DNA of 64,000 bases, from positions 1,052,178-1,116,177 of the forward strand of contig CAVVTV010000024.1 in the NCBI GenBank assembly GCA_963751215.1, given 5' to 3'. The notes beneath the pieces are model-generated. The model was not told where the DNA came from, searched no databases, and saw nothing but the letters and a program-made list of their open reading frames with translations. Numbering within the stretch: position 1 is the stretch's first letter; every line of letters begins with the position of its first letter. This DNA comes from an uncultured Thermoleophilia bacterium (GTDB lineage: Bacteria > Actinomycetota > Thermoleophilia > UBA2241). Below, piece by piece: positions 7,594-58,715 of this stretch. Both the position numbers and the translations under genes were made by a program.

Positions 7594-7659
7594 CCCGCTC
7601 TCCTTGGAGTCGCTGCGCCTGGGTCTTGCGGTGCGCGTCGAGGAGTACCTCGCCGCCGC

Positions 7660-10600
7660 TCAGGCAAGCCGCAGACACACAACCTGAAGGTCGTCCTTAA
7701 GGCTGCCCGCGAACTCGAGGGCGGCGGTCCGCACGCCGTCGGCAAACTCCTGAGCGGAGAGCCCTCTCAGCCGGCAGGCCAGGTTGGCGAGTCGCTTCTC
7801 GCCATACTGCCGACTACCGCGGCGGGCCTCGGTGACGCCGTCAGTGTAGAACAACAGGTAATCATCCAGGGAGAGCCAGAGATGCTCTTCGCGGTAGTTG
7901 CTCGGGAAGCTGCCGAGGGGAGGCCCGAACATGACCCCGAGCTGCCGGCAGGCGGAGGGAGTCACATGGACTGGAGCGGGATGGCCGGCGCTGGCGTAGA
8001 GCATGTGCCCGGTACGGGGATCGAGCACCACCATGAAGGCGGTGACGTGCGGTTCCTCGGAGTCGTAGCGCAACAAGACGTCACTAGTGTTGGCGAGGAC
8101 GAAGGCCGGAGAGGGGTTAACGGCGGCAAACGCGCGCACCGTGCTGCGCACCGTCTCGGTGTGCCCCGCTGCCTTGATGCCCTTGCCGGCCACGTCGCCG
8201 ATCAGCACCGCAATTCTACCGTCTGCCAGCTCGAAGACCTCGCTGAAGTCGCCGCCGATGAGCTCCGGCTCATAGGCCGTCTGCGAAACGATGCCAAGCT
8301 CGATGCCGGGCACGCCCGGCAGCGGGTGCTTGAAGCTCTCCTGCAGGGTCGTGGCGATGCGCTGCTGCTCTTCGTAGAGCCGGGCATTCTCGAGAGCCGA
8401 CGACATGGCACTGGCCAGCTGGCCGGCAAACTCGACGGTGCGCCGCTCGAACCTCGTAGCGGCTGCATGGCGGTTGAAGAAGACGACGCCCAGGACCTCT
8501 TCTCTGACGATCAGTGGTATGCAGAGAACGGAGCGCACGCCGAAGCGGGCTTGCACATCGGGGAAGCAGCGCGGGTCGGCCTCACAGTCGTCGATAGCGA
8601 TCGGGCGCCGCTCCGTGACCGCAGTGACGACGAACGGCACCTCGTCGGTGCTAACGCTCTCGTGGATGACCCCTGGCACCTCCGGATAGCCGTACTCGGC
8701 GACCCAGTCGTCGCCGTGCTTGAGCGCGACCATGACGCTGTCCGCCTCGACGACGGCGACAGCGCGCTCGACAACGGTCTGCATGATGGCCTTCGTATCC
8801 AGGGTCGAGTTGATCAAGCGGTTGATCTCGTTGAGGGCCGTGGCGAGGCGCGCCGCTTCAGTCTCGCGTGCGAGTAGACGCGCGTTCTCAAGGGCCAGAG
8901 AGACGGTGGCCCCGAGCTTGCGCGCGAAGTCGATCTCGGCGTCCTCGAAGTTGCGTGGCGTCTTGCCGTAGAGCAGCAGGCAGCCCATCGCCGAGCCCCT
9001 GGCTACCAGCGGCACCGCAAGCACGGACCGCACGGCATGGATGTGGACGAAACCGACGTCAAGTGACGGATCGGCGGCCATGTCGGCAATCGCAAAGGGT
9101 TCCAGGATTGCCGCGGCGCGCGTGGCGTTGGGCGCCTCCAGATCGCTCAGCCGCAGGCCGACATCGCCAGGCGAGAAGCCTGTCTGGTAGCTTACTACCC
9201 AGCAGGACTCCTCACGCATCTCGATCGCGCCGGTATCGACGGATAGAGCCCGCACGCCTTCCTCAAGGCCCCGCTGCATGATCACGTCGAGGTCGAGCTT
9301 GGAGTGCACCAAGTTGTCGATCGCGTTGAGCGCCTCGGCGAGGTCGGCGCGCAGTCTCAGCCCCTCCTCCGCCCGCAGGCGGGCTGTGACGTCGTTGAAG
9401 ATGGTCGCGAACTTGCCCGGCGAGGGAGTGTAGGCGACGACCTCATAATGCCGATCGAGAGCAATGGAGTAGTGATCGAAGGTCGCCTGGCGGCCAGTCT
9501 GCGCCACGTTGCCGCAGACCTCGATCCAGAGAGGCTCGCGGCTGGGAAGCACCTCACGAGCGGTGTGCCCGATGAGGTCATTGGCGCGCAGGCCGATGAG
9601 CTCCTCGAAAGCCCTGTTGACCTCGAGGAAACGATAGTCGACCGGGCGACCCTCCGAGTCGCTCACGATCTCGTGGACGGCGAAGCCGCTGGTCATCTCC
9701 GTGAAGAGTCTCTGATACGCGCCACGGCTGGCGGCCAAGCCCGCATTGGACGATTCGATCTCAAGCGCCTGCGCCTGCAACTCCTCGCCCTGAGAACGCA
9801 GCTCCTCGCCCTGCGTACGCAGCTCCTCGAGCGCTTGCTGATGCTCGAACTCGGCTTGCTTGCGCTCCGTGACGTCCGAGAACAAGACCGTGACTCCATC
9901 TGGGCTTGGGTAGTCTCGTTCCTCAACCCAGAGACCTAGCGGTTCGTAGTAGGCCTCGAAGGCGGCGGTCCGGCCCTCCTCCATCGCCTTCCGCTTGCTC
10001 AGCTCGAAGATGCTGCCCGCCATGTCTGGGAAGAGCGCCAGGAAGCTGCGACCGAGCAGCTCCTCCTTGGTGCGCTGGAAGTAGGCGGCCGCCCTGTCGT
10101 TCACGAACGTGAGACGCCAGCGGCGATCGAGCGTGAAGAAGGCGTCGCTGATCGTGCCCAGGATAGTGGCCAGACGCATGTGCGAATTGGCCAACTCCCG
10201 TTCAACGTACTTGCGCTCGTTGATCTGACGGTAGTAGGCGCTGACGCCTGCCGCGGTCGGGTAGATGCGCACCTCATACCAGTCTCTGTCGACGACCGAG
10301 CGATGTTCGAAGATGGAGGGCTGGCCGAGCTCCATGGCATCCCGGTAGTGAGCCGCGAGCGGGGTGTCGACCAGCTCCGGGAAGACCTCCCACGGCGTGC
10401 GGCCGAGCAGCTCTGCAAGCGACGTACCGGTCATCTTGAGGGCGGCGCTGTTGGCGTAGACGTAGCGGTACTGCCAGTCGAGTGCCAGGAAGGCCTCGTC
10501 GATCTCCTCGAGCAGGGCCCTCATCCTGATCTCGCGATGGGTGCTCTGCGGCGTGCCGGCAACCACGGCGAGACCGCTCTCAAGTGACCCCACGGGGCAC

Positions 10601-11083: not shown

Positions 11084-14000
11084 CTACCCAGCAGCCTGCT
11101 GCCTCAGCCTCTCGTTGTCGACGGCCAGGGCAACCAAGGCGGCGATCTTGGCGGCGAAGTCGATTTGCGCCTCGGAGAAGGCCATCGAGATAACCTTCCA
11201 ATTGAACAGCAACACGCCGACCACGCTGCCGGCAACCACGAGTGGGGCAGCGAGCACCGAGCTCAGCCCCAGTGTCTTCAGCACCTTCGCAGAGACGCCC
11301 TCTGGGCTACTGCCCAGGCTTATCGCCACCGGCAAGCGCGTCTCCGCGGCCAGCACCGCATGCGGAAACTCGGCATCGGAGAAACGAGCTCCTGCGGCGC
11401 TGGGCGGCAGGTTGTGGCTGTGGCGCGCGACCCAAACCGCATCCTCGCGAACGGCGACCGTGGCGGAGTCGGCGCCCAGCGTGGCGCTGGCCTCCTGCAG
11501 CAGCCCGGGCAGAGCGGCAGCCGGCGTCTGGTTTGCGGCAAAGCCGGCGAGAACGCGGTTCACACTCTCGTTCATCGTCAAGGAGATCTGGATCTGCTCC
11601 AGGCTGCGATGCAGCTCGTCGATGTCGAGGAAGGTGAGCACAGCGCCGTCAACGCGCCTCTCTGCCGTCTGGAAGGGCCGCACCCGCAGGGTGTACCAGC
11701 GCCCGGCGGCGTCTCGCACCTCGCGCACCACCGTCGTCGCGTTCTCGATCACCTCGCCGAGAAGCTCTCGCAGGTCGGGGACGACCAGGCCGCTCGAGAT
11801 GTCGGTGACGGGCCGCCCCACGTCTGTGGCGATCAGGTTGAGCACCGCCTCGGTACCCGGCGTGAAGCGCCGAATGGTGAGATCGCGGCCGACGATCACT
11901 GTGGGTACACTCATGGCGCGCAGCAGGTTGCTGACGTCGTCGTAGGCGCCCGCCAGCTGCTGGTTGCGGCTCACGAGCTCCTCGTTGACGGTGCGCAGCT
12001 CCTCGTTTGTTGACTGCAGCTCCTCCTTGGCGGTCTCGAGCTCTTCGTTGATGCTCTGCAACTCCTCGTTTGTAGACTGGATCTCCTCGTTGGCGGCGCG
12101 CAGCTCCTCGTTACTCTTCTCTCGCTGCTGAATGACCGACTGCAGGTAGACCTGGGTAGAGGCACGCTCGCGTCTGAGGGCGAGGATCTCCTGCCTTTCC
12201 GCACCGCTTGGCGGGCTCGTCTCCGGCGAGGCTTCGATCGCCTCCCGGTGAGGCGTCATGAAGAGCACCAGCACGTGCTCTTGATCGGGCGGTCCGGCGA
12301 GCGGCACGGCCTCCAGGTCGACCATCTGACCGGCCTCGGTACCGTGCACGGCGACGCCGGCTTCGCTCTGCGCGCTGGCCTCATGGCGCACGCGCTCGAC
12401 GAGCTCGCGCAGGGGTGCCGAGAGGCCTTCGCGAGCCATGGCGAGCAGGTTGAGCGTAGCGCGCCCAGCGGCATGCTGCAGGTAGGGGTCCGTGTCGCCG
12501 AAGAACTGCACGATCTCAAGGCGGTGATCGACCACTACGGCCGGTGGCGTGAAGTCGGTGAGCAGGGTGTGGGCGGCCGCCTCGAGCGGGTCGGGGTATG
12601 CCACGGAACCCGGCTCGCCGATCGGCTCCACTCGGGGCTCACCGCGATGCTCGAGGATCGCCGGGAAGGGGTAGGCGAACTCGATCGGCAGGCGCGGTGG
12701 CACGTCGTTCTTGACGAAGATCTTGTTGCGATTGTCGATCACGGTGAAGAGATCTCCGGCGGCGCCGAGCGATTCTGAGAGCCCCAGCATGAGGAAGGCG
12801 CCGGGCAGCAGGGCGTAGTGCAACATCGGTAGCACGCGCTCCTGTAACACGCGGCCGAGGTAGATGAGCACGTTGCGACAGACGATCAGGTCGAGCCGTG
12901 AAAAGGGCGGGTCGCGAGTGACGTCGTGGCGGGCGAAGACGCACATGTCGCGAATAGCTCGGTCGATCTGGTAAGCACCGTCGGTGCGCGTCAAGAAGCG
13001 CTCGCGCAGGTCGGCGGGTATGGACGCCACGCGGCTCTCCGGGTACTCTCCCGCCCGCGCCAGCGCCAGCTCACGTTCGTTGATGTCGGTAGCAAGGATC
13101 TTGATGGGGAACCGGTTTCCGGCTCCCTGCATGGCCTCGGCCAGCACCATGGCGAGGCTGTAGGGCTCCTCGCCGGCGGCGCAGCCGGGCACCCAAACGC
13201 GCACCTCGCGGCCGGGATCGCGACCGGCAAGAAGAGCAGGCAAGACGTGCTCTTTGAGACCCTCGTAGGTCTCTGGCTCGCGGAAGAAGTCGGTCACCAT
13301 CACCAGAATGTCGTGATAGAGCTCGTCGAGCTCACCGCGGTCGACGGCGATGAGATTGGCATACGCATGGCGCGAGTCGAGGCGCTGCAGGACCATACGC
13401 CGTTCGATGCGCCGGCTGACCGTGCCGCTCTTGTAGCCCGCGAAGTCGACGCCAAAAGCCTCGCGCAGGGCGATGAGGATGCGCGTCGTGTCGTCGTCCG
13501 TGCGGGCCGTCGGGGCTGATTTCTTGCCAGCGGACTCGCTCACATAGGGGTGTCCGCCGAGGCGCACGAGCTCCCCGGCGATCTGCCCGGGCGCCAGCAC
13601 CTTGTCGGCGACACGGGCGTGGATCGCGCTCGAGGGCATGCCGTCGAAGCGTGCGGTAGCCGGGTCCTGGGCGAAGGCGATGCCGCCTGCGCCTTTGACG
13701 GCAGCGAGGCCCAGCGTGCCGTCGGTGCCCACGCCCGAAAGCACTACGCCGATCGCCCTTTCCCCGAGGTCTTGCGCGAGCGATTTGAGGAACTGATCGA
13801 TGACCAGATGCCGGGCGCTGGGTTCAAGGCGCTCCAGCAGATCGAGGTGGCCATGGTATATCACCATGTCGACGCCGGGCGGGATGACGTAGACATGATC
13901 GGGTTGCACGGCCATGCGGTTCTCGACCTTGACGACCGGCATGGCCGTGTGCCGAGCGAGAAGCTCGGGCAGGATGCTGCTGTGCTGCGGCGCCAGATGC

Positions 14001-14143
14001 TGCACCAGGACGAGCGCCACCCCGGGGCTCTGCGGTAGCTTGTCGAGCAGGGCGGAGACCGCCTCGAGGCCACCCGCGGAGGCGCCTATACCAACGACGG
14101 GGAAGCGCATCGTTACGCCGCGCTTCTGTTTCGCTGTTGCCAT
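11084..14143 (-). CDS. CheB methylesterase - CheR methyltransferase - coiled-coil - PAS - GAF fusion protein
   Basis: ORF 11084..14167. ATG at 14143 (MATAKQ), alternative 14110. VVGIGASAGGLEA (CheB-type), VWVPGCAAGEEPYSLAMVL with MVTDFFREPETYE (CheR SAM methyltransferase), heptad NEELQSTNEELRTVNEEL block, PAS, C-terminal GAF. 50-bp gap to 7660..11034 on the same strand. Confidence 0.8.
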   Translation of the reverse strand: MATAKQKRGVTMRFPVVGIGASAGGLEAVSALLDKLPQSPGVALVLVQHLAPQHSSILPELLARHTAMPVVKVENRMAVQPDHVYVIPPGVDMVIYHGHLDLLERLEPSARHLVIDQFLKSLAQDLGERAIGVVLSGVGTDGTLGLAAVKGAGGIAFAQDPATARFDGMPSSAIHARVADKVLAPGQIAGELVRLGGHPYVSESAGKKSAPTARTDDDTTRILIALREAFGVDFAGYKSGTVSRRIERRMVLQRLDSRHAYANLIAVDRGELDELYHDILVMVTDFFREPETYEGLKEHVLPALLAGRDPGREVRVWVPGCAAGEEPYSLAMVLAEAMQGAGNRFPIKILATDINERELALARAGEYPESRVASIPADLRERFLTRTDGAYQIDRAIRDMCVFARHDVTRDPPFSRLDLIVCRNVLIYLGRVLQERVLPMLHYALLPGAFLMLGLSESLGAAGDLFTVIDNRNKIFVKNDVPPRLPIEFAYPFPAILEHRGEPRVEPIGEPGSVAYPDPLEAAAHTLLTDFTPPAVVVDHRLEIVQFFGDTDPYLQHAAGRATLNLLAMAREGLSAPLRELVERVRHEASAQSEAGVAVHGTEAGQMVDLEAVPLAGPPDQEHVLVLFMTPHREAIEASPETSPPSGAERQEILALRRERASTQVYLQSVIQQREKSNEELRAANEEIQSTNEELQSINEELETAKEELQSTNEELRTVNEELVSRNQQLAGAYDDVSNLLRAMSVPTVIVGRDLTIRRFTPGTEAVLNLIATDVGRPVTDISSGLVVPDLRELLGEVIENATTVVREVRDAAGRWYTLRVRPFQTAERRVDGAVLTFLDIDELHRSLEQIQISLTMNESVNRVLAGFAANQTPAAALPGLLQEASATLGADSATVAVREDAVWVARHSHNLPPSAAGARFSDAEFPHAVLAAETRLPVAISLGSSPEGVSAKVLKTLGLSSVLAAPLVVAGSVVGVLLFNWKVISMAFSEAQIDFAAKIAALVALAVDNERLRQQAAG

Positions 14144-14261
14144 GAGCCTACCTTCGGGGTCGATCACATTCTAGCCCCTCGAGGGTCGGCACGCGGCCGG
14201 CGTCGTTATAGAGGTCTGCCGGCAGCATCTCCTCAACTGATGCCAACGCCTTTGACTCAGC

Positions 14262-14320
14262 CGCCTGGCGGGTACATACATCTTCGCGGTGCCACGAGGT
14301 GGGGCCGAGTGTTCGTAGCG
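14262..14320. promoter_or_regulatory. conserved ~55-nt non-coding motif, copy 1 (ACGAGGTGGGGCCGAGTGTTCGTAGCGCGACGCAGCGCACGCCTGGTACG)
   Basis: About 85% identical to 42243..42300. Lies about 120-180 nt upstream of the CheBR-PAS-GAF start on the minus strand. Coordinates are approximate (+/-2). Confidence 0.5.
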
Positions 14321-14581
14321 CGACGCAGCGCACGCCTGGTACGCAGAAGCAGTCGACCCGGTGCAGCGAGCCCTCGTTGCCAGCTCAGCCCCCCTCGGCG
14401 CGCCTCTTCTTGGCCCCCCATACCCTCTGCTGGACGAGGCCTCGCCTACTGCTGCTCTTACTCGTCGTGCGAGAAGATGGGACAACCTTCACCAGCGACG
14501 CTCCCATGCCACGGAAAGCCACGATTGCCGCCCTCACCTGGTGGGAAGACATCGGCAGTCGCATCACCCGAGGAGGACGTC

Positions 14582-16239: not shown

Positions 16240-17004
16240 CTAATCGTGAACGGGAAACTGCGAGACCGATACTTCCCTGGCGCCCGACGGCAGCGTGAAC
16301 CAGCACGTCGCTTGAGCAGCGGCCGGTAGCCAACCGTAGTCGATGGTCACCAGGCCGAGACCGTCGGGACGTTCCAGCATACGGATCGGCAGATACGTCT
16401 GAGGATCGACGTAGTAGCGCCGGTGCATACTGGGCTCCGAGTCAGCCAGCACCAGCACCTGCTGGCCGCGCAGGACGGTCTGGCCCACCCGGGTGATGTC
16501 GGCTGCCTGTAGCGGCGCCTGCAGCGCCGCCAGGGGCGCGGGCACGCCAGTGGCCGGAGCAGTGCTCGGCAGCGCCTGGCCGGGATGAGCGGCCTGCCAG
16601 GCTGCCTGCTTCTGCGCCAGGCCCTTGGCGAGAGCAGCGTGTGAGGTGGCGCCCAGCCGTTCGAGGAGGTCCCAGATGCAAGCCTCCTCCTCGGGAAGTT
16701 GCTCCCAGGCCGGGCTCCCCTCAACGGCCGAGGCTCGCACTGCCTCGCGCACCTCGCGTTGCCGCCGCCGCCGCTGACTGCGCCGCATATTGAGGTGAAC
16801 GTTGCGTGAGGCCGCGAGGAGCCAAGGGAGCGGCGCCTCGCCGGGAATGCCTTCGAGGCGGCGCCAGGCGACGAGGAAAGTCTCTGCGACGATGTCGTCA
16901 GCGAGCGCCGGCTCTCGCCGCCAGGCGAACGCACGCACGGCCCCGTAGTGGGCGTTGTAGAGCGCATTGAACCCGCTCTCTCGCCGCTTTCGATCGAGCG
17001 TCAT
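16240..17004 (-). CDS. ECF-type sigma-70 region-2 domain protein with a non-sigma C-terminal domain (no recognisable region 4)
   Basis: ATG 17004 with GGGGAGG RBS. FNALYNAHYGAVRAFAWRR...DDIVAETFLVAWRRL...PWLLAASRNVHLNMRRSQRRRR is a canonical ECF region 2. The remaining about 150 aa have no HTH or region-4 signature. Confidence 0.55.
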   Translation of the reverse strand: MTLDRKRRESGFNALYNAHYGAVRAFAWRREPALADDIVAETFLVAWRRLEGIPGEAPLPWLLAASRNVHLNMRRSQRRRRQREVREAVRASAVEGSPAWEQLPEEEACIWDLLERLGATSHAALAKGLAQKQAAWQAAHPGQALPSTAPATGVPAPLAALQAPLQAADITRVGQTVLRGQQVLVLADSEPSMHRRYYVDPQTYLPIRMLERPDGLGLVTIDYGWLPAAAQATCWFTLPSGAREVSVSQFPVHD

Positions 17005-32948: not shown

Positions 32949-33110
32949 AGACCGTGCCTGCGCGGCGCACGACGCCATCGCCGTCGCGCTGGCCCGCTCG
33001 GCTCCTGTGGAGTGCACAAACTCGATCACGCCGCCAGTACAGGGCCGCGGCGGCGACCTGCAGATCCAGTTCCCGGCGTCTGACTGACACGCAGATGGGA
33101 AGACGCACCA

Positions 33111-33152
33111 GAGAGGGGGCCGGCGGAGCGTTTGCTCCGCCGGCCCCCTCTC
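33111..33152. terminator. perfect 19-bp stem hairpin GAGAGGGGGCCGGCGGAGC-gttt-GCTCCGCCGGCCCCCTCTC between convergent genes
   Basis: Read directly. Confidence 0.7.
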
Positions 33153-33318
33153 GCGTGCCGCCCGGCTGACCGTCGCGACGGCGTCTGCGATTGGCCGCTT
33201 ACCGGCTCCTGTAGTGGTTGGGCGGCGACGCTCATCGCGAGGCTGGTGTTCGCTGGAAAGTAGGTCGCGTCGTCAGCCTCACACGGCGGGTCTGCCGCGA
33301 GTCACCCGAGCACAAGGG

Positions 33319-34062
33319 TCACGGCACGCTCTCGTAGACGCCCGCCGCCGCCAGCCTGCCGGCCTCGACCGTCACCGTCGTCGGCGTCATCCCGACACCG
33401 CTGGAGTCGCCCAGCCTGAAGGTGTAGTCGCCTGGCGCCAGCTTGAGAGAGAAGAAGCCGGCCCAATCGGAGCGCACCTTCGTCAGTGGTGGACTGCTGG
33501 CAGGCGCAGCGCCGCCCTGCCAGACCACGACTTGGACATGCGTGAGCGGCCTGGGGCCGCCGGGGAAGGGGCCGCCCTCCATTAAGGCGTGACCCCAGAC
33601 GCCTTCACCGGCGGACGGCGGCGGGACGTAGGAGTGGAGCTGCCCGAGGGGCGCCAGGTGGAGGCCGCGGGCACGGGTGAAGCCGTGCGCCAGATAGATG
33701 TGACCGTCGACCTCCAGGACCAGGTAGAGCCGGCTCGCTTTGGTGCCCGGCGCGTCGGGCGGCCTGAAGTGACCGCGCAGCACGACCACGAAGACCCTGC
33801 CCGAGCCGAAGAGGGAGAGGTAGCTCGTGGCACCGCCCGCGAGGCTGGCGGCGCGCGCCGGAGTCGTCAGAGTCCAGCGGAGGGCGCCGGGCTGAGGGTC
33901 GCCGGCAGCGAGCGCTTGCCAGAGGGCCTCGCGCTGCACCCAGGCGGGCGGTCGCACGACGACAGGGGCCGCGGCACGGGGCTCGGAGGCGGCGCTTGCG
34001 GAGCCGCCGGCAGCGAGTGCCAGCAGGGCGAGTAGCGCAATCACAAGCAGAGCGCGGCGCAT
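33319..34062 (-). CDS. secreted hypothetical protein
   Basis: ORF 33319..34071 trimmed to ATG (MRRALLVIALLALLALAAGGSASA signal peptide). GGAGG RBS. Confidence 0.6.
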   Translation of the reverse strand: MRRALLVIALLALLALAAGGSASAASEPRAAAPVVVRPPAWVQREALWQALAAGDPQPGALRWTLTTPARAASLAGGATSYLSLFGSGRVFVVVLRGHFRPPDAPGTKASRLYLVLEVDGHIYLAHGFTRARGLHLAPLGQLHSYVPPPSAGEGVWGHALMEGGPFPGGPRPLTHVQVVVWQGGAAPASSPPLTKVRSDWAGFFSLKLAPGDYTFRLGDSSGVGMTPTTVTVEAGRLAAAGVYESVP

Positions 34063-34129
34063 GAGGCTCACCTCCGTCTAGACCACCGTTCGCTCACGGT
34101 GAGACGCACGGGTCGGGCGGAGAGTTCGT

Positions 34130-36220
34130 CTACAGAGACCGTCTAGCGCCTGCCTTCCCGGCCCCAAAGCCTGCGGTCGCCGCGGCGGGGGCGAAGCCTC
34201 CCGTGGTCGTCTTCAGGATGTCGCCGCCTTCACCGGCCGCCCAGCCCAGCGTCGGGTTTACGAAGCTCAGGGCGTCGAGAGGCTCAGAGTCGAGATCGTT
34301 GGGTATCAGCTGCTTGGTCCACGTGGCGCCGCCATCGCTTGTGTGGATGATGTAGGCGGCACGGCCGAACTCGCCGCCACCAACCGCCCAGCCGTGCGTG
34401 GCGTCGGCGAAGACCACGTCGCTGAGACTCGGCTGGCCGTACCGCGGCCAGAGCTTCTGGGCGACCCTTGTCCAGGTCTGTCCGCCGTTCGTGGTGCGCC
34501 AGATCTCGGCGTTGTCATCGTCGTAGCCCACGGCGACGGCGTGCTCGGCGTCGGTGCAGGCGACGCTGGTCAGCGTGGCGTCGTCCTCCATGCTCACATA
34601 GGGTGGCGAGAAGTCGAGCTGCTTGGTCCAAGTGGCGCCAGCGTCGGAGGTGTGCATGATCACGGTGCTGTTGAAGGTGGAGTCCGACCCCTGGGTCTCA
34701 CCGACCGCCCAGCCGTCCTGCGCATCGGTGAAGGTGACGGCGCTGAAGGCGACCCCCGCGTTCATCGTGTTGAGGTCGAAGGGCGAGGCGTACTGCGTCG
34801 TCCAGTGCTGACCGCCGTCGGTGGTGTGCAGGATGACGCCGCTGCTGTAGTCGTCGTAGGGGGTGAAGGTCTGGCCGGTGGCCCAGCCCGTTTGGGCGTC
34901 GGTGAAGGTCACGCCGGTGAGGTCATAGCTTGTGCCTGAGCTCTGGGATGCCCAGGTGGCGCCGCCGTCGGAGGTGTGGATGATGGTGCCTTGGTCGCCG
35001 ACGGCCCAACCGTTCGACCGGTCGACGAAATGGACGGCGCTCAGACCCGCGCTGGTGTTCGAGGTCTGGGCGGTCCATGTGAGGCCCCCGTCTGTGGTTG
35101 CCAGGACCTCGCCGCCGCCGCCCACGGCCCAACCGTGCAGGGCATCGCTGAACTGCAGGGCGGTGAGGGTGCCGAAGTAGTCGCCCGCCGCGCGCGTGCT
35201 GGGCTGCCAGCTGGTGCCGCCGTCGGTGGTATGGCTCAGGCGCCCGCTGTAGCCGGTATACGAGGAGTCTGAAGAGGCACCCGTGACGGCCACGAGGGGC
35301 GTGAGCGCTTCGACCCAGCTGGCCGGAGGGGCCGTGCCCTCGGGCGCCCAGTGGACGCCACCGTCGGCGGTGTGGTAGACCGTGCCGTCGACGGCCGCCC
35401 AGCCGTGGTCGCGATCGGCGAAGGAGAGGCCGCTCACCGGCCCGGAGAGCTGGACGGTCCAGTGCAGACCGCCGTCGCTGGTGTGGGCGATCTGGCCACC
35501 GTCTTGGTCGATGTCGCCGACCCAGCCGTTGCGTGCGCCCTTGAAGACGACGAGGCCCGGAGAGGAGACCTGGGCCAGGTGGACATGCTGCCAGCTGCGG
35601 CCGCCATCGACAGTACGGAGCAGCGCGTGGCTGCCGAAGCCGTCGGCGATCCAGGCGCGCCTGGCACTGAGCGCCGCCACGCCTTCCGGCCGGTCGCGGC
35701 TGCCCAGCTTCTGGGCGCTCCAGGTCAGGCCGCCGTTGGTGGTGTGCAGGATGCGGTGCCCGATGGTCGCCCAGCCGACCTTCGTCGTGGCGAAGCCGAT
35801 GGCTTTGATGGCGCCCCGCCACTGCAGGCGCACGCGCGTCCACCTCTGGCCGCCGTTCGTGGTGCGATAGAGGATGCCCGTGCCCTTGGCGCCGGCCGGC
35901 GCGCCGGCCGCCCAGCCACACCTGGTTCCGACGAAGGTGATCGCGCTGAAGTCGACGTTGTGCCGAGCCTGCACGGTCAGCGTGCGGCCTCCGTTAGTCG
36001 TGTGGAAGATGGTGCTGCCGCTGATGAGCCAGCCGTGTGTCGCATCGAGGAAGTAACCGCTGGCGTAGCCGTTGCCCTGAGGCAGCGGGTTCTGCCACTG
36101 CCAGGCACCGTTGCCGGTGCCGATCAGGGCGAGGGCCGCCGCGGGCAGGACGAGCAACGCCAGCACGGCGCCGCACAGCGCCAGGGCGAAAGGCGGTAAG
36201 GAACGTGCCGAGCCTGTCAT
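34130..36220 (-). CDS. secreted BNR/Asp-box (Ycf48/sialidase-like beta-propeller) repeat protein
   Basis: ORF 34130..36241 trimmed to ATG 36220. Signal peptide, then at least 12 repeats of HT[ST]DGGxTW / TTNGGxTW (S-x-D-x-G-x-T-W). Confidence 0.8.
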   Translation of the reverse strand: MTGSARSLPPFALALCGAVLALLVLPAAALALIGTGNGAWQWQNPLPQGNGYASGYFLDATHGWLISGSTIFHTTNGGRTLTVQARHNVDFSAITFVGTRCGWAAGAPAGAKGTGILYRTTNGGQRWTRVRLQWRGAIKAIGFATTKVGWATIGHRILHTTNGGLTWSAQKLGSRDRPEGVAALSARRAWIADGFGSHALLRTVDGGRSWQHVHLAQVSSPGLVVFKGARNGWVGDIDQDGGQIAHTSDGGLHWTVQLSGPVSGLSFADRDHGWAAVDGTVYHTADGGVHWAPEGTAPPASWVEALTPLVAVTGASSDSSYTGYSGRLSHTTDGGTSWQPSTRAAGDYFGTLTALQFSDALHGWAVGGGGEVLATTDGGLTWTAQTSNTSAGLSAVHFVDRSNGWAVGDQGTIIHTSDGGATWASQSSGTSYDLTGVTFTDAQTGWATGQTFTPYDDYSSGVILHTTDGGQHWTTQYASPFDLNTMNAGVAFSAVTFTDAQDGWAVGETQGSDSTFNSTVIMHTSDAGATWTKQLDFSPPYVSMEDDATLTSVACTDAEHAVAVGYDDDNAEIWRTTNGGQTWTRVAQKLWPRYGQPSLSDVVFADATHGWAVGGGEFGRAAYIIHTSDGGATWTKQLIPNDLDSEPLDALSFVNPTLGWAAGEGGDILKTTTGGFAPAAATAGFGAGKAGARRSL

Positions 36221-36304
36221 CTCAAAGTCCTTTCGCACCATGGCATCCGGCCGGACATAGACACACTAACGCTGACACCGGTTAGACGGAAGTTTGGCCG
36301 CAAA

Positions 36305-36337
36305 GTATCGGCCGACAACGGCCTGGGAGAGGCTTCT
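36305..36337 (-). promoter_or_regulatory. conserved 33-nt motif copy X (TTAGACGGAAGTTTGGCCGCAAAGTATCGGCCG) with 5-bp stem / 8-nt loop
   Basis: 28/33 identical to 47615..47647, with compensatory stem change (GGCCG/CGGCC versus GCCGG/CCGGC). About 85-115 nt upstream of the BNR-protein start on the minus strand. Confidence 0.5.
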
Positions 36338-46057: not shown

Positions 46058-46322
46058 CCTGTATTTACCCTGTTGAGGGTTACCCACCACGGAGTTGCCC
46101 ACTCGAAGTTGGAAAGCGTAGACATGATCGGGCGGTCGGTGCCGAGCGCGCCCAAGTCACGGCGCAGTGCGGGCCCAACAACGGCGCAGTGCGGCGTACA
46201 AGGGGGCGGTGTGGGCTCGCGTCATCCGGAGGCCGGGGGAACAACGCCCGACTAGACATGCTGCCGGGGGGCGCCCAGGGGGACGTGAAGGTGAGCTCGA
46301 CGACCGCGCAGAACGCCTCGCG

Positions 46323-47438
46323 CTATTGGCCGCCTGCAGGGTGGGAGCTCGTGCCAGTAGGTGTCGCGCGCACACCCGCGGCTTTGAAGAGCTCGGGGAT
46401 CGTGACCATCTGGTAACCACGCGCGTGCAGGCCAGCGATGATCAGCGGCAGAGCCTTGGGGGTTTGGCCGCGCGTGTGCATGAGGATGATGCTGCCGTCG
46501 TGCACGTGATCGAGCACGTTGGCCACGATGGTGTTGACGCCGGGCTTGGTCCAATCGAGTGAGTCGACGTCCCAGAGGATGATGCGTGAGTAGCCCATCT
46601 GCCCAGCGAGGGCCAGCAGGTGGGTGTTGAAGGCCCCATAAGGGGGCCGCAGGTAGGGCACCGTGGAGGCATGGAAGTCCTGCCACCAGATGTCGTCCGG
46701 CTGCTTGAGCTGCATGCGCACCTGTGCGTCGGTCACCGTCGTGAGATCGGGGTGGCTCCAGGAGTGGCTGCCGATCGCCATGTGGTCCTTGAGTGTGAGG
46801 CCGGCATCGCGATTGGCGTAGTCGGCTACGTATTCGCCGATCGGAAAGAAGGTGCCCTGGGCGTGCCCGGCGATGAGCTCACGCAGGATCCAGTACCAGG
46901 CGGTCTTGCCGCCACCGTCATCGAAGGTGAGGGCGACGCGCTTGCCGGCGGCCGGAAGGCTGGTGTAGACCTTGGCGGTGACGGGAGGCTGGAAACGCAC
47001 CCAGCCGACCGTGGTTGTGGTGCTCACCGGGGCGCCGTTGGCACCCACCTTGACCAGGTAGAGGCCGGGGCCGGCGGGCGAACCGTTGGCCTGCGTGCAG
47101 CTCCAGCTCACGCTCCCGGTGTGCGCCCCGGCGGCGGTCTGCCCCTTGCCGGAGGCCATCAAGTCACCATAGGCGCCCAGCACCCGCCAGCTCCAGCTGC
47201 TCGGCGCCGCCCCGGCGAAGCGGAAGCTGAAGGTCACGCTCTGCCGGCTGTGCAGCAGCACAGCGTCGGCACCAACGGTGCTCACGCGCACGCGCCGCGC
47301 CGTGCCCACGGAGGATTGGCTGAGGTGCGGCGCCGGGGCGACCGCCCCGCCGCAGGCGTCGGCGAAAAGAAGCAGGCATACCACCACGGGCACTGCCGCG
47401 GTGCGACGAAGAACCCGGGTGAGGCCTCGGGCCGGCAT
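46323..47438 (-). CDS. polysaccharide deacetylase (NodB-homology) lipoprotein/secreted protein
   Basis: ORF 46323..47597 trimmed to ATG 47438 (MPARGLTRVLRRTAAVPVVVCLLLFADACGG). RVALTFDDGGG, HSWSHPDL, LRPPYG NodB motifs. Confidence 0.8.
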   Translation of the reverse strand: MPARGLTRVLRRTAAVPVVVCLLLFADACGGAVAPAPHLSQSSVGTARRVRVSTVGADAVLLHSRQSVTFSFRFAGAAPSSWSWRVLGAYGDLMASGKGQTAAGAHTGSVSWSCTQANGSPAGPGLYLVKVGANGAPVSTTTTVGWVRFQPPVTAKVYTSLPAAGKRVALTFDDGGGKTAWYWILRELIAGHAQGTFFPIGEYVADYANRDAGLTLKDHMAIGSHSWSHPDLTTVTDAQVRMQLKQPDDIWWQDFHASTVPYLRPPYGAFNTHLLALAGQMGYSRIILWDVDSLDWTKPGVNTIVANVLDHVHDGSIILMHTRGQTPKALPLIIAGLHARGYQMVTIPELFKAAGVRATPTGTSSHPAGGQ

Positions 47439-47614
47439 GATCGGGGGGTGCCCTGCCACGCCGCCGAATGTATGGCGCCGCGGCGAAGAGCGCAACCCGC
47501 GACGCTGACGATCGACGGCGAGGGGCGAGGTTGGCCGGGGGGCAGATGTGCCGAACGGCTGCCCTGGCGCCGCAGGCCTCTCCACTTGCAGGCTCACTGG
47601 CCGGGCCGAAAACC

Positions 47615-47647
47615 TTAGACGGAAGTCTGGCCGGAAAGGATCGCCGG
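47615..47647 (-). promoter_or_regulatory. conserved 33-nt motif copy Y (TTAGACGGAAGTCTGGCCGGAAAGGATCGCCGG)
   Basis: See 36305..36337. About 180 nt upstream of the deacetylase start on the minus strand. Confidence 0.5.
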
Positions 47648-48096
47648 CGGCTGCCGGCGGGGGTCCTCGCCACCATGCGCGACTGTGTCTGCGCCCGTTA
47701 CTTCACCTTCAACGCAAGCCACTTCGTGGTGACCGCCGCGTGTCGCGCGGTCTTGGCGATCACGGCCCTCATCCGGTAGGCGCCCTTCTTGGCGGGTTTG
47801 TCAGTTCCCCGCGGACCGTGGTAGCCGGTGAGTCCGTCGTGTTTGCGATCGTCTAACTGGTCTTGCGGCGGCCAAGAGCATGACCCTGGTCGCCGTGCTC
47901 TTCGCCGTCTACGGCTCGCACGAGGGATAGAGCAGCGCCCGCAGAAAGGTTGACGAGCAACGCTCTGGCCTAGCTGATCTGCTGCTGAGAGGTTTGGAGC
48001 TCGACTTGGCGTTGAAGTATGAGGGCAGTCCAGTAACCGCGCACCAGCCGAACTCCTGAGGAAGGACGGCGCAGCGTCCCGCGCAAGGGGAGGAAC

Positions 48097-48999
48097 ATGG
48101 CGAAGCCCATCCACAGACAGCTCGACAAGCTCATCGAGCCACTACTCGTCGAACCGGGGAGCACGGTGTCGCTCGCGCGCGACTTCGATCCTGGCCACCG
48201 AGCCCACTTCCTGCGGCGAGAGGATGCCGCGGAGGAGCTCCAGGCAGGCATCGAGCTGCTGACCGAGTACCAGGCAAGGCTGGCAGCCCAGGACTCTTGT
48301 GCCCTGCTGGTCGTGCTCCAGGCCATGGATGCCGCCGGCAAGGACGGCACGATCAAGCACGTGATGAGCGGCGTGAACCCGCAGGGCGTCCGCGTGACGA
48401 GCTTCAAGGCGCCGTCGTCGGAGGAGCTCGAGCATGACTTCCTCTGGCGCTGCCAGCGGGCGTTGCCCAAACGTGGCGAGATCGGCATCTTCAACCGCTC
48501 GCACTACGAGGAGGTCCTCTCCGTGCGTGTGCACCCGGAGTTCCTCGCCGCCCAGCAGCTTCCAACCGCGGCCACGAGCAAGGGGGTCTGGCAGCGGCGC
48601 TACCGCGAGATCAACGACTGGGAGCACTACCTCGTCGATAACGGCATTCACGTCGTGAAGCTCTTCCTCAATCTCTCGAAAGAGGAGCAGCGGCAGCGCT
48701 TCCTGGCGCGCATCGAAGAGGCCGACAAGAACTGGAAGTTCTCCGCCGCCGACGCTCGGGAGCGCCAGTACTGGGACGCCTACCAGGAGGCGTTCTCAGA
48801 GATGCTCAGCGCCACGAGCACGAAATGGGCGCCCTGGCACGTCATCCCCGCCGACCACAAGTGGTTCAGCCATCTGGCGACGGCCGCCGCGATCATCCGC
48901 GAGCTCGCGGCCATAAACCCGCAGTACCCCACGATGAGCAAGACGCGACGGCAGGCCATGGCCGAAGCCAAGAGAGAGCTCGAAGCCGAGGCGCGATAG
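48097..48999 (+). CDS. ppk2: polyphosphate kinase 2 (PPK2, single-domain class)
   Basis: LLVVLQAMDAAGKDGTIKHVMSGVNPQGVRV (Walker A-like) and IFNRSHYEEVLSVRVHPE. GGGGAGG RBS. Confidence 0.85.
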   Translation: MAKPIHRQLDKLIEPLLVEPGSTVSLARDFDPGHRAHFLRREDAAEELQAGIELLTEYQARLAAQDSCALLVVLQAMDAAGKDGTIKHVMSGVNPQGVRVTSFKAPSSEELEHDFLWRCQRALPKRGEIGIFNRSHYEEVLSVRVHPEFLAAQQLPTAATSKGVWQRRYREINDWEHYLVDNGIHVVKLFLNLSKEEQRQRFLARIEEADKNWKFSAADARERQYWDAYQEAFSEMLSATSTKWAPWHVIPADHKWFSHLATAAAIIRELAAINPQYPTMSKTRRQAMAEAKRELEAEAR

Positions 49000-56806: not shown

Positions 56807-58375
56807 ATGGCGGCTGAAGGTCGCCACTCCACCGGCGGCCCGGGGCAGACAGGTCTCGCGCCGCGGATCCTTTTGATCGAGGACAATCCCGGCGATGCGC
56901 GCCTCGTACGGGAGCTCCTCGCCGAGGCCAACCCGGGTTTCGAGTTGCACTGGGTGCAGCAGCTCGCGGCCGGCCTTGCGTACCTCGCCGAGGGCGATCA
57001 GATCGCCGCCGTGCTGCTCGACCTCTCACTACCCGATAGCCAGGGATTGGCGACCTTCGAACGCCTGCACGCCGCAGCCCTCGAGGTGCCCATCATCATG
57101 CTCACCGGCCTAGCCGACGAGGAACTCGCCCTGCAGGCCCTGCGCGGCGGTGCCGCTGACTACCTGACCAAGGACGACATCAGCGGGGCGCTGCTCGTGC
57201 GCGCGGTGCGCTACGCGGTCGAGCGCCGCCAGAGCAACGAGGTGCTGCGGCTCAGCGAGGAGAAGCTGCGTCTCGCTATGGAGGCGAGCGAGTCGGGCAT
57301 CCTCGACCTCGACGTCCCCACCCGCCAGATGACCTCGAGCGCCGACTGCCAGGCGATGCTCGGCCAGCCGTCGGTCGAGGTGAGCGGCCCACTCGAAGAG
57401 ATCTGGGCCGCCTACATCCACCCCGAGGACCGCGCGGCCAGCTTGCAGGCGCTCGAGGAGACGATCGCGGGACGCTCTCCCTACTTCGAGCGCGAGCACC
57501 GCCTGCGCACCACGCGTGGCGGTTGGGCCTGGGTGTACGACAAGGGCAAAGTGGTCGAGCGCAACGCCCAAGGCGCCGCGCTTCGCCTGCTCTCCACCTG
57601 CACGAACATCACGACGCGCAAGAAGGCAGAGGAAGATGCCGTCACCACGGCCACCCTGCTTGCCGAGCAGCGCCGCATCGCCACCACCCTGCAGGAGAGC
57701 TTCAAGCACCCGCTGCCGGACGTGGCCGGCATCGAGCTCGGCGTGGTCTCACAGACGGCCTACGAGCCCGAGCTCATCGGCGGCGACTTCAGCGAGGTCT
57801 TCGAGCTCCCCGACGGGCGGATCGTCGTCCTCATCGGCGACGTGGCCGGCAAGGGAATCAAAGCGGCGGGGCTCACCGAGACGGTGCGCAGCATGGTGCG
57901 CGCCTTCTCCGCCATCGATCCCTCACCGGCCTTCGTCCTTGCGAAGACCAATGAGGTCTTGTTGCGCTACGACCCCGAGGAGCCCCACGTCACGGCCTTC
58001 CTGGCCGTGCTCGACCCGCAGAGCGGACATCTGAGCTACGCGAGCGCCGGCCACCCCGCCCCACTGCACCTGAGTCCCTTCTCCTGTCGCCCGCTCGGCG
58101 TCGGCTTCGGCTCGCCGCTGCACAGCTTCCCGGGCCCATACCAGGAGGAGCACCTCAGGCTCTCGCTAGACGACTACCTGCTGCTCTACACTGACGGCGT
58201 CACCGAGGCACGCCGCGGCGAGGAGGAGTTCGGTGAGGAGCGGCTGATCGAAGTGGCCAGGCGGCTGCGTGGCGCTTCCGCCCAGGAGGTCGCCGAGGGC
58301 GTGCGCGCCGCGGCGCTCGAGTTCGCCGGCAGCCTGAGAGACGACCTGCAAGTTGTGTGCCTGAGGCTCGCCTAG
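56807..58375 (+). CDS. response-regulator receiver (REC) - PAS - PP2C (SpoIIE/RsbU-type) phosphatase
   Basis: ORF 56723..58375 trimmed to first ATG. RILLIEDNPGDARLV...DLSLPDSQG (REC, Asp pocket). PAS. PP2C about 80% identical to the C-terminus of 7660..11034, with the same terminal DDLQVVCLRLA. Confidence 0.8.
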   Translation: MAAEGRHSTGGPGQTGLAPRILLIEDNPGDARLVRELLAEANPGFELHWVQQLAAGLAYLAEGDQIAAVLLDLSLPDSQGLATFERLHAAALEVPIIMLTGLADEELALQALRGGAADYLTKDDISGALLVRAVRYAVERRQSNEVLRLSEEKLRLAMEASESGILDLDVPTRQMTSSADCQAMLGQPSVEVSGPLEEIWAAYIHPEDRAASLQALEETIAGRSPYFEREHRLRTTRGGWAWVYDKGKVVERNAQGAALRLLSTCTNITTRKKAEEDAVTTATLLAEQRRIATTLQESFKHPLPDVAGIELGVVSQTAYEPELIGGDFSEVFELPDGRIVVLIGDVAGKGIKAAGLTETVRSMVRAFSAIDPSPAFVLAKTNEVLLRYDPEEPHVTAFLAVLDPQSGHLSYASAGHPAPLHLSPFSCRPLGVGFGSPLHSFPGPYQEEHLRLSLDDYLLLYTDGVTEARRGEEEFGEERLIEVARRLRGASAQEVAEGVRAAALEFAGSLRDDLQVVCLRLA

Positions 58376-58715
58376 AGGCGGGGCTCAGACCGCGGCTCAC
58401 CCCTCAAGGCGCACATCACCTGCACCGCTGTGCGTCAGCCGAAGACCGTCATCTGCTGTGGCGGCTCAGCGGGCGGCGCGTGCGGAGCACTTCCTCGGCC
58501 CGACACTGCTCCCACGCCTAAAAGGCCGCCGAACATGTCGCCTGGGGTGGCCGCCAGCCCAGCCAACGGCTGTTGGGAAGGAGCAGGAGCGGGAGGCGAG
58601 AACATGGCGAGGCCATGTAAGGCCTCCCGCCCGGGGGCACGCTGGAGGGCAAGTGCAGTCGTTCTATCTAGCCCGGCGCGCGTCGGCCGCGCGCACGCGC
58701 GAGGCTCTTCGCGCC

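Follow-up and report, generated by a model that had tools for sequence, protein, structure and literature searches.

A probable ECF sigma promoter upstream of a YCF48-like beta-propeller gene and a polysaccharide deacetylase gene in an uncultured actinobacterial lineage

We found two copies of a 33-nt motif in the window, by which we mean the whole 64-kb stretch of DNA analysed here (67% G+C). One degenerate 33-mer fits both copies, A and B, with 0 mismatches; they are identical at 28 of 33 bases, and 0 matches are expected by chance. With as many as 3 mismatches allowed, the 64 kb contains no third copy (0 expected from 100 shuffles). An earlier note on this DNA had described the pair; it was right that two copies exist and right about the coordinates of the second (47615..47647), while the first, which it put at 36305..36337, in truth lies 23 nt further left, at 36282..36314. 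Both sites are intergenic, 5′ of minus-strand genes and in sense orientation toward each gene, the motif as it was then written being, as said, the strand opposite to both genes. In gene orientation (reverse complement) copy A reads CGGCCGATACTTTGCGGCCAAACTTCCGTCTAA and copy B reads CCGGCGATCCTTTCCGGCCAGACTTCCGTCTAA. When 200 nt around each site are aligned, likeness is confined to a block of 29–33 nt, with a sharp end after TAA on the gene-proximal side. The features are:

36282..36314, minus strand: site A, 33-nt motif; its 29-nt core (36282..36310) is CGATAC-TTT-GCGGCCAAACTT-CCGTCTAA
36305..36310, minus strand: predicted −35 of site A, CGATAC, in register with CGATAC/CGAAAC/TGAAAC 5′ of ECF sigma genes and BNR orthologues
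36302..36304, minus strand: T-tract of site A, TTT, directly after the predicted −35
36282..36289, minus strand: predicted −10 of site A, CCGTCTAA, with 16 nt between GATAC and CGTCTAA; the likeness of A and B ends here
34130..36220, minus strand: target gene A, for a 696-aa BNR/YCF48-like beta-propeller protein (Pfam PSII_BNR, 1.6e-44)
33319..34071, minus strand: 250-aa ORF from the ORF list, 58 nt after the BNR gene
47615..47647, minus strand: site B, 33-nt motif; its core (47615..47643) is CGATCC-TTT-CCGGCCAGACTT-CCGTCTAA
47638..47643, minus strand: predicted −35 of site B, CGATCC, the weakest −35 among the family; TTT follows at 47635..47637
47615..47622, minus strand: predicted −10 of site B, CCGTCTAA, from the family alignment
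46323..47438, minus strand: target gene B, for a 371-aa polysaccharide/peptidoglycan deacetylase, PgdA/CDA1-like (Pfam Polysacc_deac_1, 7.1e-21)

The gene context had been read correctly as a BNR-repeat protein and a polysaccharide deacetylase, with Pfam matches on the minus strand to PSII_BNR/BNR and to Polysacc_deac_1. The BNR protein has a signal-peptide-like N-terminus, and its start codon (ATG 36220) is preceded by an AAGGA ribosome-binding site; a database protein (P0121) is 100% identical to the 696-aa form, and the NCBIfam Ycf48 model matches below its cut-off. The deacetylase has a hydrophobic N-terminus ending in Cys; its matches to NCBIfam deacetylase families all fall short of the respective cut-offs. 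An entry for exactly this protein exists in a soil-type metagenome assembly at ENA (L017), whose DNA is identical to the window, site B included, making this comparison uninformative. The 250-aa ORF matches no Pfam or NCBIfam family and may be co-transcribed from site A. Between the end of the predicted −10 and the start codon there are 61 nt at site A (ATG 36220) and 176 nt at site B (ATG 47438); the earlier note gave 85–180 nt. Promoter prediction on both strands gave no sigma-70-type promoter at site A or B, and no intrinsic terminator is predicted there. Two other promoter assignments were set aside: a plus-strand sigma-70 reading (TTAGAC-N18-TATCGG), for which no promoter is predicted and no gene lies downstream on the plus strand, and a WhiG/sigma-28 reading of GCCGATAC, which has no TAAA 15 nt upstream and whose conservation runs downstream instead.

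Both sites have the layout of an ECF promoter, namely GATAC (site A) or GATCC (site B), 16 nt, and CGTCTAA, with −35 words that deviate from the canonical AAC. Validated actinobacterial sigma-E promoters, which lie 5′ of envelope genes, have the form AAC...(C/G)GTCT(A/T) (PMC6767563), and ECF sigmas demand strict boxes and spacer length (PMC6411747). The spacers of A and B are identical at 14 of 16 positions, and CGGC-SAAACT recurs across lineages; within the spacer stands a second GAAACT-like word, 13 nt after the first. To our knowledge, the conserved CGGC-SAAACT part has no counterpart in the Bacillus subtilis sigma-V/M/W/X promoters. This is more conservation than a plain spacer should have, and it hints at an extra constraint; it may reflect common descent, a second factor, or extended contacts made by the sigma itself.

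Searches with parts of the motif gave few sites. A scan of 185,579 species genomes for its left half (TTAGACGGAAGTNTGGCC) yielded only 16 single chance hits, in unrelated, mostly low-GC taxa and none with the rest of the motif. The full 29-base consensus had 0 hits in JGI metagenomes. The pattern CCGATACTTT-N12-CCGTCTAA had 5 in the metagenome scan, of which only one (L036) is clearly real; three (L032-34) were rejected because they fall within coding sequence or low-GC DNA, and at the other, L035 2337..2366, on a contig of 68% GC, both boxes match while the spacer is unrelated and there is no clear downstream gene.

Further sites lie upstream of two kinds of gene in related genomes. One kind is a gene for an ECF sigma. 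In L030 it is preceded by CGGCCGATACTTTCGCCCGGATCTCCCGTCTAA (core CGATACTTTCGCCCGGATCTCCCGTCTAA), identical to site A in the −35 block, the −10 block and the gap between them, though different in the spacer; in L037, which shares its contig with L018, a genus-level relative, by CGATACTTTCCGGCGAAACTCCGGTCTAA; and in L039-42 by CGAAACTTTCCGGCGAAACTGCCGTCCAA. These were found via protein homology and not via the motif. L036, found by the motif scan and thus dependent on site A, has CGATACTTTTCGGCGAAACTTCCGTCTAA 5′ of a degenerate sigma copy. The other kind is the orthologue of the BNR gene itself: in L026 (65% identity) it follows GTTGAAACTTCGCGACGCGACTCCCGTCTAA, with TGAAAC-N16-CGTCTAA 69 nt before the ATG, and in L027-29 (64% identity) it follows GTGAAACCAAGAGGCCCAAACTGGGTCTAA, with TGAAAC-N16-GGTCTAA 66 nt before the ATG. 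The BNR orthologues in L020-25 and L031 have no such site upstream.

Several details of these loci are worth recording. In L036 (3690..4580), downstream of the motif, comes a degenerate sigma ORF, comprising the N-terminus and region 2.1/2.2 before the frame is lost, and then by a BNR-like ORF matching the C-terminal part of a 675-aa paralogue in L030; this degenerate operon is either a natural deletion variant or an assembly error. Upstream of the BNR orthologue in L026 (3873..3931) stand two −35-like words 20 nt apart (GGAACTTCGTGACGC AAGT TGAAACTTCGCGACGC), a local tandem duplication of the −35 region. The leaders 3′ of the −10 in the sigma operons and at the L026 BNR gene share TCGnnnnACGnTGGTyCACCA (L030 656..700, L036 3720..3760, L037 6923..6965, L040 6959..7000 and L026 3932..3965), with a small dyad, TGGTnnACCA, 13–22 nt after the −10; the dyad may act as an operator, or form a 5′ hairpin, peculiar to the sigma operon. 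Sites A and B of the window are without this leader element. L037 also encodes, at 13066..14484 and 1.3 kb past its sigma-BNR cluster, a further polysaccharide deacetylase of larger size (472 aa, carrying Big domains); the region upstream of this gene contains no motif that reaches 12 bits.

Eight distinct sites, the two of the window included, align without gaps over the 29-nt core from the −35 word to TAA, with the consensus YGAWAC-TTT-nCGGCs-AAACT-y-CCGTCTAA. Within the −10, GTC and the final AA are invariant over the eight sites and the T between them occurs in seven of eight; columns 5′ of the −35 word are unconserved. Weight matrices were trained on foreign sites only, with L036 left out, and used to scan 128 kb, that is, both strands of the window. 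Sites A and B ranked first and second with every foreign-trained matrix. With all 29 columns they scored 43.5 and 35.3 bits, against 7.9 for the next best position and 12.7 for the best shuffle. A matrix of the −35 and −10 boxes only gave 30.6 and 24.6 bits (next best 10.7, best shuffle 23.4), and one of the boxes from the three sigma-gene sites gave 32.5 and 27.3 bits (next best 11.7, best shuffle 25.5), so that with boxes alone site B stands only about 1–2 bits above the best shuffle. The foreign-trained matrices ranged over 43.5–46.0 bits for A and 35.3–37.2 for B, and including L036 left the picture the same.

The sigma genes of L030, L036, L037 and L039-42 belong to one family, with 70–100% identity to P0243. 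A search with the L030 sigma recovered a tight orthologous family (P0244-P0281, 64–88% identity), after which identity drops to 54% or less. Members have Pfam Sigma70_r2 and r4_2 and score above the NCBIfam cut-off for the sigma70-ECF superfamily; the best of the specific NCBIfam models, SigM, scores 105 bits where 190 is required, and the SigE-family model reaches 62 against 141. The L030 operon encodes the ECF sigma (196 aa, Sigma70_r2 and r4_2), a 202-aa protein, a BNR paralogue, a BNR orthologue and a rhomboid protease, the fourth gene being the true orthologue of target gene A (62% identity). In L037 and L039-42 the sigma heads the same operon (sigma, ~205-aa protein, BNR protein). The pattern across these related uncultured Actinomycetota, probably Thermoleophilia, is thus a sigma, a one-helix membrane protein and one or two BNR proteins, the last homologous to target gene A. 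The second gene overlaps the sigma stop codon by 8–25 nt; its ~205-aa product matches no Pfam or NCBIfam family and has a conserved N-terminal segment of ~45 aa, one hydrophobic helix and a Pro/Ser/Thr-rich tail. It looks like a small single-pass membrane anti-sigma factor, and we treat it as a putative anti-sigma. In the literature on ECF sigmas we found no description of a sigma/anti-sigma/BNR-YCF48-like context.

No sigma gene of the P0243-P0281 family lies within the 64-kb window; the genus-level relative L037 does encode one. The sole sigma-like ORF of the window (16240..17004, minus strand, 254 aa) matches sigma-70 region 2 only (Pfam 1e-7), with no region 4 detected, an unrelated C-terminal half and no ECF-type motif upstream.

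Judged only by the source names of homologues at 64% and 29% identity, the organism of the window itself probably belongs to Actinomycetota, class Thermoleophilia. The closest relative, L019, is 96–97% identical to the window in nucleotide sequence, and site A is unchanged there 5′ of the BNR gene, which is uninformative given this closeness. Site B has a different distribution. The deacetylase genes of the two nearest relatives, L019 (95% identical) and L018 (84% identical), have no site upstream, and homology to the window stops at 47506 in L019 and at 47530 in L018, short of site B. The 658-bp intergenic region that holds it (47439..48096), between the deacetylase gene and a divergent PPK2 gene (48097..48999), is strain-specific when set against L019 (3340..4261) and L018 (9651). 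The variable DNA around site B had no similarity in the sequences searched, plasmid and phage collections included. Since neither of the two nearest relatives has the DNA in which site B lies, the deacetylase gene seems to have been recruited to the regulon recently.

Comparison with L019 turned up three other differences or repeats. The 1.27-kb deacetylase module (L019 4262..5528, window 47506..46237) lies elsewhere in L019, after a VTT-domain gene, and the L019 contig ends (position 1, window 46102) exactly at the start of FtsH, the position that the deacetylase occupies in the window; the displacement would reflect either a rearrangement or a break in the assembly at a module present in duplicate. 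L019 also has a truncated Sigma70_r2 fragment (13724..14125, Pfam 1.6e-8) 3′ of the BNR gene and of a 247-aa gene homologous to the 250-aa ORF at 33319..34071, where the window has ~150 nt of unrelated DNA (gap near 33063..33221); with ~50% identity to every family member, it was rejected as the cognate sigma and is a different ECF. A dispersed similarity of ~100 nt, at 83–88% identity, links window 7652..7761 (minus strand), window 58275..58378 (plus strand) and L019 5569..5679; it is a conserved C-terminal coding segment (...PAQEIAEGVRAAALEFAGSLRDDLQVVCLRLA*) of paralogous proteins and not a non-coding repeat.

The block was originally proposed to be a hairpin with a compensatory stem change, as expected for a structured RNA or a dyad protein site. 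A 5-bp GC stem with an 8–9-nt loop can indeed be drawn in both copies, and the centroid fold of copy B on the plus strand shows it. The swap, however, is an artefact of alignment: once the copies are aligned in true register, A and B have one and the same 3′ arm, CGGCC, and their 5′ arms come from columns two positions apart, so that the paired columns differ between the copies and no compensatory change has occurred. In the register of copy A the helix pairs 70% of cells over the eight sites against 68.1% in shuffles (201 of 500 as good), and in that of copy B 45% against 42.9% (208 of 500); covariation in this count, whose power is limited by its eight sequences, is not above shuffles or slid controls beyond the effect of invariant CG columns. 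The minimum-energy folds differ among the eight sites, with mostly unremarkable z-scores, and that of copy A is without the proposed stem. Rfam, suggested earlier as a check, has no match over either site: there are 0 hits at gathering score in the whole window, and relaxing the threshold to E<=1 around either site adds only a chance snoRNA match that lies off the motif. The block, which terminates in a −10-like box, would also be 5′ of the predicted transcript. With a 5′ arm in unconserved columns, no covariation and inconsistent folds, a structured cis-regulatory RNA in the 5′ UTRs, be it a leader hairpin or a riboswitch-like motif, is extremely improbable; the dyad is not supported as a protein site either. 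The earlier note would have counted it against its own reading if no copies beyond these two existed; this does not apply, as other genomes have related copies, and what those show is a promoter, not a fold. Its broader claim of a shared cis-regulatory element, probably co-regulating two exported or envelope proteins, is supported.

An operator overlapping or replacing a promoter, with the sigma-like boxes secondary, might be read by a response regulator on the direct repeat GAWACT...SAAACT or by a dimer bound to the GC dyad. Across lineages and between non-orthologous sites the spacer is partly conserved, its second GAAACT-like word does follow the first at 13 nt, and A, B and L036 each allow a 5-bp dyad. 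Yet conservation is highest precisely in the −35 and −10 boxes, which have ECF geometry, and the boxes-only matrix still ranks both sites first, if barely above the best shuffle for B (24.6 against 23.4 bits). The left half-site columns (−32..−28) are unconserved over the eight sites, the dyad shows no covariation and its register differs between A and B; a 13-nt period does not put half-sites on one helix face, and L027 has its second word displaced by 1 nt with the box spacing unchanged. Position 5′ of ECF sigma genes is, moreover, the standard signature of autoregulation (PMC7826278), and we judge an operator unlikely. The likeness that ends abruptly at TTAG/CTAA, together with the placing of site B in DNA not common to the nearest relatives, might instead suggest that the block is a recombination site or the terminus of a mobile or repeat element, such as the terminal repeat of an IS or MITE, and that inserted DNA brought site B along. 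The earlier note had raised a repeat end as well, but we found no inverted partner within 800 bp, no similarity beyond 29–33 nt, no dispersed copies past the two in 64 kb and none among plasmids or phages, no transposase-like ORFs, no matches of the variable DNA in plasmid or phage collections and only chance hits in the genome-collection scan. Both copies have the same orientation relative to the downstream gene, and the position 5′ of orthologous genes is conserved between lineages with only 62–65% protein identity, which leaves this origin very improbable. A specific candidate, an IS5-like terminal repeat (GGAAG...AAAG after TTAG), was rejected for want of a partner repeat.

Given the observed sequence match, register, genomic contexts and matrix scan, we consider it probable that each copy is a promoter read by RNA polymerase with an ECF (group IV) sigma factor. 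The bipartite boxes with a 16-nt spacer and the likeness ending after TAA count for this ECF promoter, as do the same block 5′ of one orthologous ECF sigma family in four lineages and the lack of a predicted sigma-70-type promoter at either site. Against it count the weak −35 words (GATAC and GATCC, without AAC, that of B the poorest), the conserved spacer, the lack of a family sigma gene in the 64-kb window, and the missing site 5′ of the L019 and L018 deacetylase genes and of the BNR orthologues in L020-25 and L031. The ECF sigma-dependent upstream-of-self position expected under autoregulation is found in the relatives L030, L036, L037 and L039-42; ECF sigmas usually autoregulate and are co-encoded with regulators and targets (PMC7826278).

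From sequence we infer the further steps, namely sigma binding, start sites, the role of the anti-sigma and the inducing signal. Sigma region 4 would contact the −35 word CGA(T/A)(A/C)C and the adjoining T-tract, and region 2 would bind CCGTCTAA, the −10 word 16 nt downstream, and open the duplex there. The predicted transcription starts lie a few bases past TAA, at ~36272–36277 and 47605–47610 on the minus strand, which would give leaders of ~55 nt for the BNR/YCF48-like protein and ~170 nt for the polysaccharide deacetylase. The recogniser would be a sigma of the P0243-P0281 family, which would also drive its own operon from the same promoter (positive autoregulation). Held by the co-encoded membrane protein, it would be released, presumably on an envelope signal, and both window genes would then come on together.

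This puts a concrete regulatory assignment in place of an apparent covarying hairpin. It would place a YCF48-like beta-propeller protein and a peptidoglycan/polysaccharide deacetylase in the regulon of an uncharacterised ECF sigma from an uncultured actinobacterial lineage, and would link non-photosynthetic YCF48/BNR proteins, for which we know of no function, to envelope-type signalling. The promoter model YGAWAC-TTT-N12-CCGTCTAA could be used to find the rest of the regulon in complete genomes. The element is otherwise ordinary in kind; its interest lies in the partial regulon of a sigma/anti-sigma/YCF48-like module and in the long conserved promoter core. A more ambitious reading we hold, as a whole, to be unlikely: a previously undescribed ECF sigma group of uncultured soil Actinomycetota (Thermoleophilia-like) would have as its hallmark the module of sigma, short anti-sigma and YCF48-like beta-propeller; the promoters would require an unusually long, contiguous 29-nt recognition block, including the second GAAACT-like word and the CGGC core, read by the sigma or an accessory factor; and promoter copies would be able to move 5′ of new envelope genes, such as the strain-only deacetylase.

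Among known systems, the promoters of the sigma-E (ECF) regulon for cell-envelope stress in Streptomyces coelicolor are alike in having a −35 ending AC(C/G/T), a spacer of ~16–17 nt and a −10 of (C/G)GTCT(A/T), as in GGCAACCCGAGGGGCGATGCCCG-CGTCTA (PMC6767563). Their targets are likewise largely exported or cell-envelope proteins, and the target promoters are kept 5′ of orthologues in only some genomes (PMC6767563). The sites described here differ in a −35 of CGA(T/A)AC, not (G/C)(G/C)AAC, and in a partly conserved spacer. The B. subtilis sigma-V/M/W/X promoters share a TGAAAC-type −35 with an immediate T-run and a CGT-containing −10 that is 16–17 nt off, although phylum and sigma families are different; there, a T-tract next to the −35 tunes ECF selectivity, and spacer sequence contributes to sigma selectivity (PMC5758882). 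At the mapped RpoE1/RpoE3-dependent promoter of SMc01022 in Sinorhizobium meliloti, the −10 and its flank are identical, CGTCTAATCG (GCGAATAAAAACGAGGCCGCGGGCGTCTAATCGGA) (PMC6180224), whereas the −35 is GAATAA and phylum and regulon are unrelated; from what the two have in common it follows only that CGTCTAA is commonplace as the −10 of an ECF promoter. In genomic arrangement the likeness is to autoregulated ECF sigma/anti-sigma modules, in which a promoter of the kind that the sigma reads stands before the sigma gene itself, a membrane regulator and targets are co-encoded, and the motif is conserved within the subgroup (PMC7826278).
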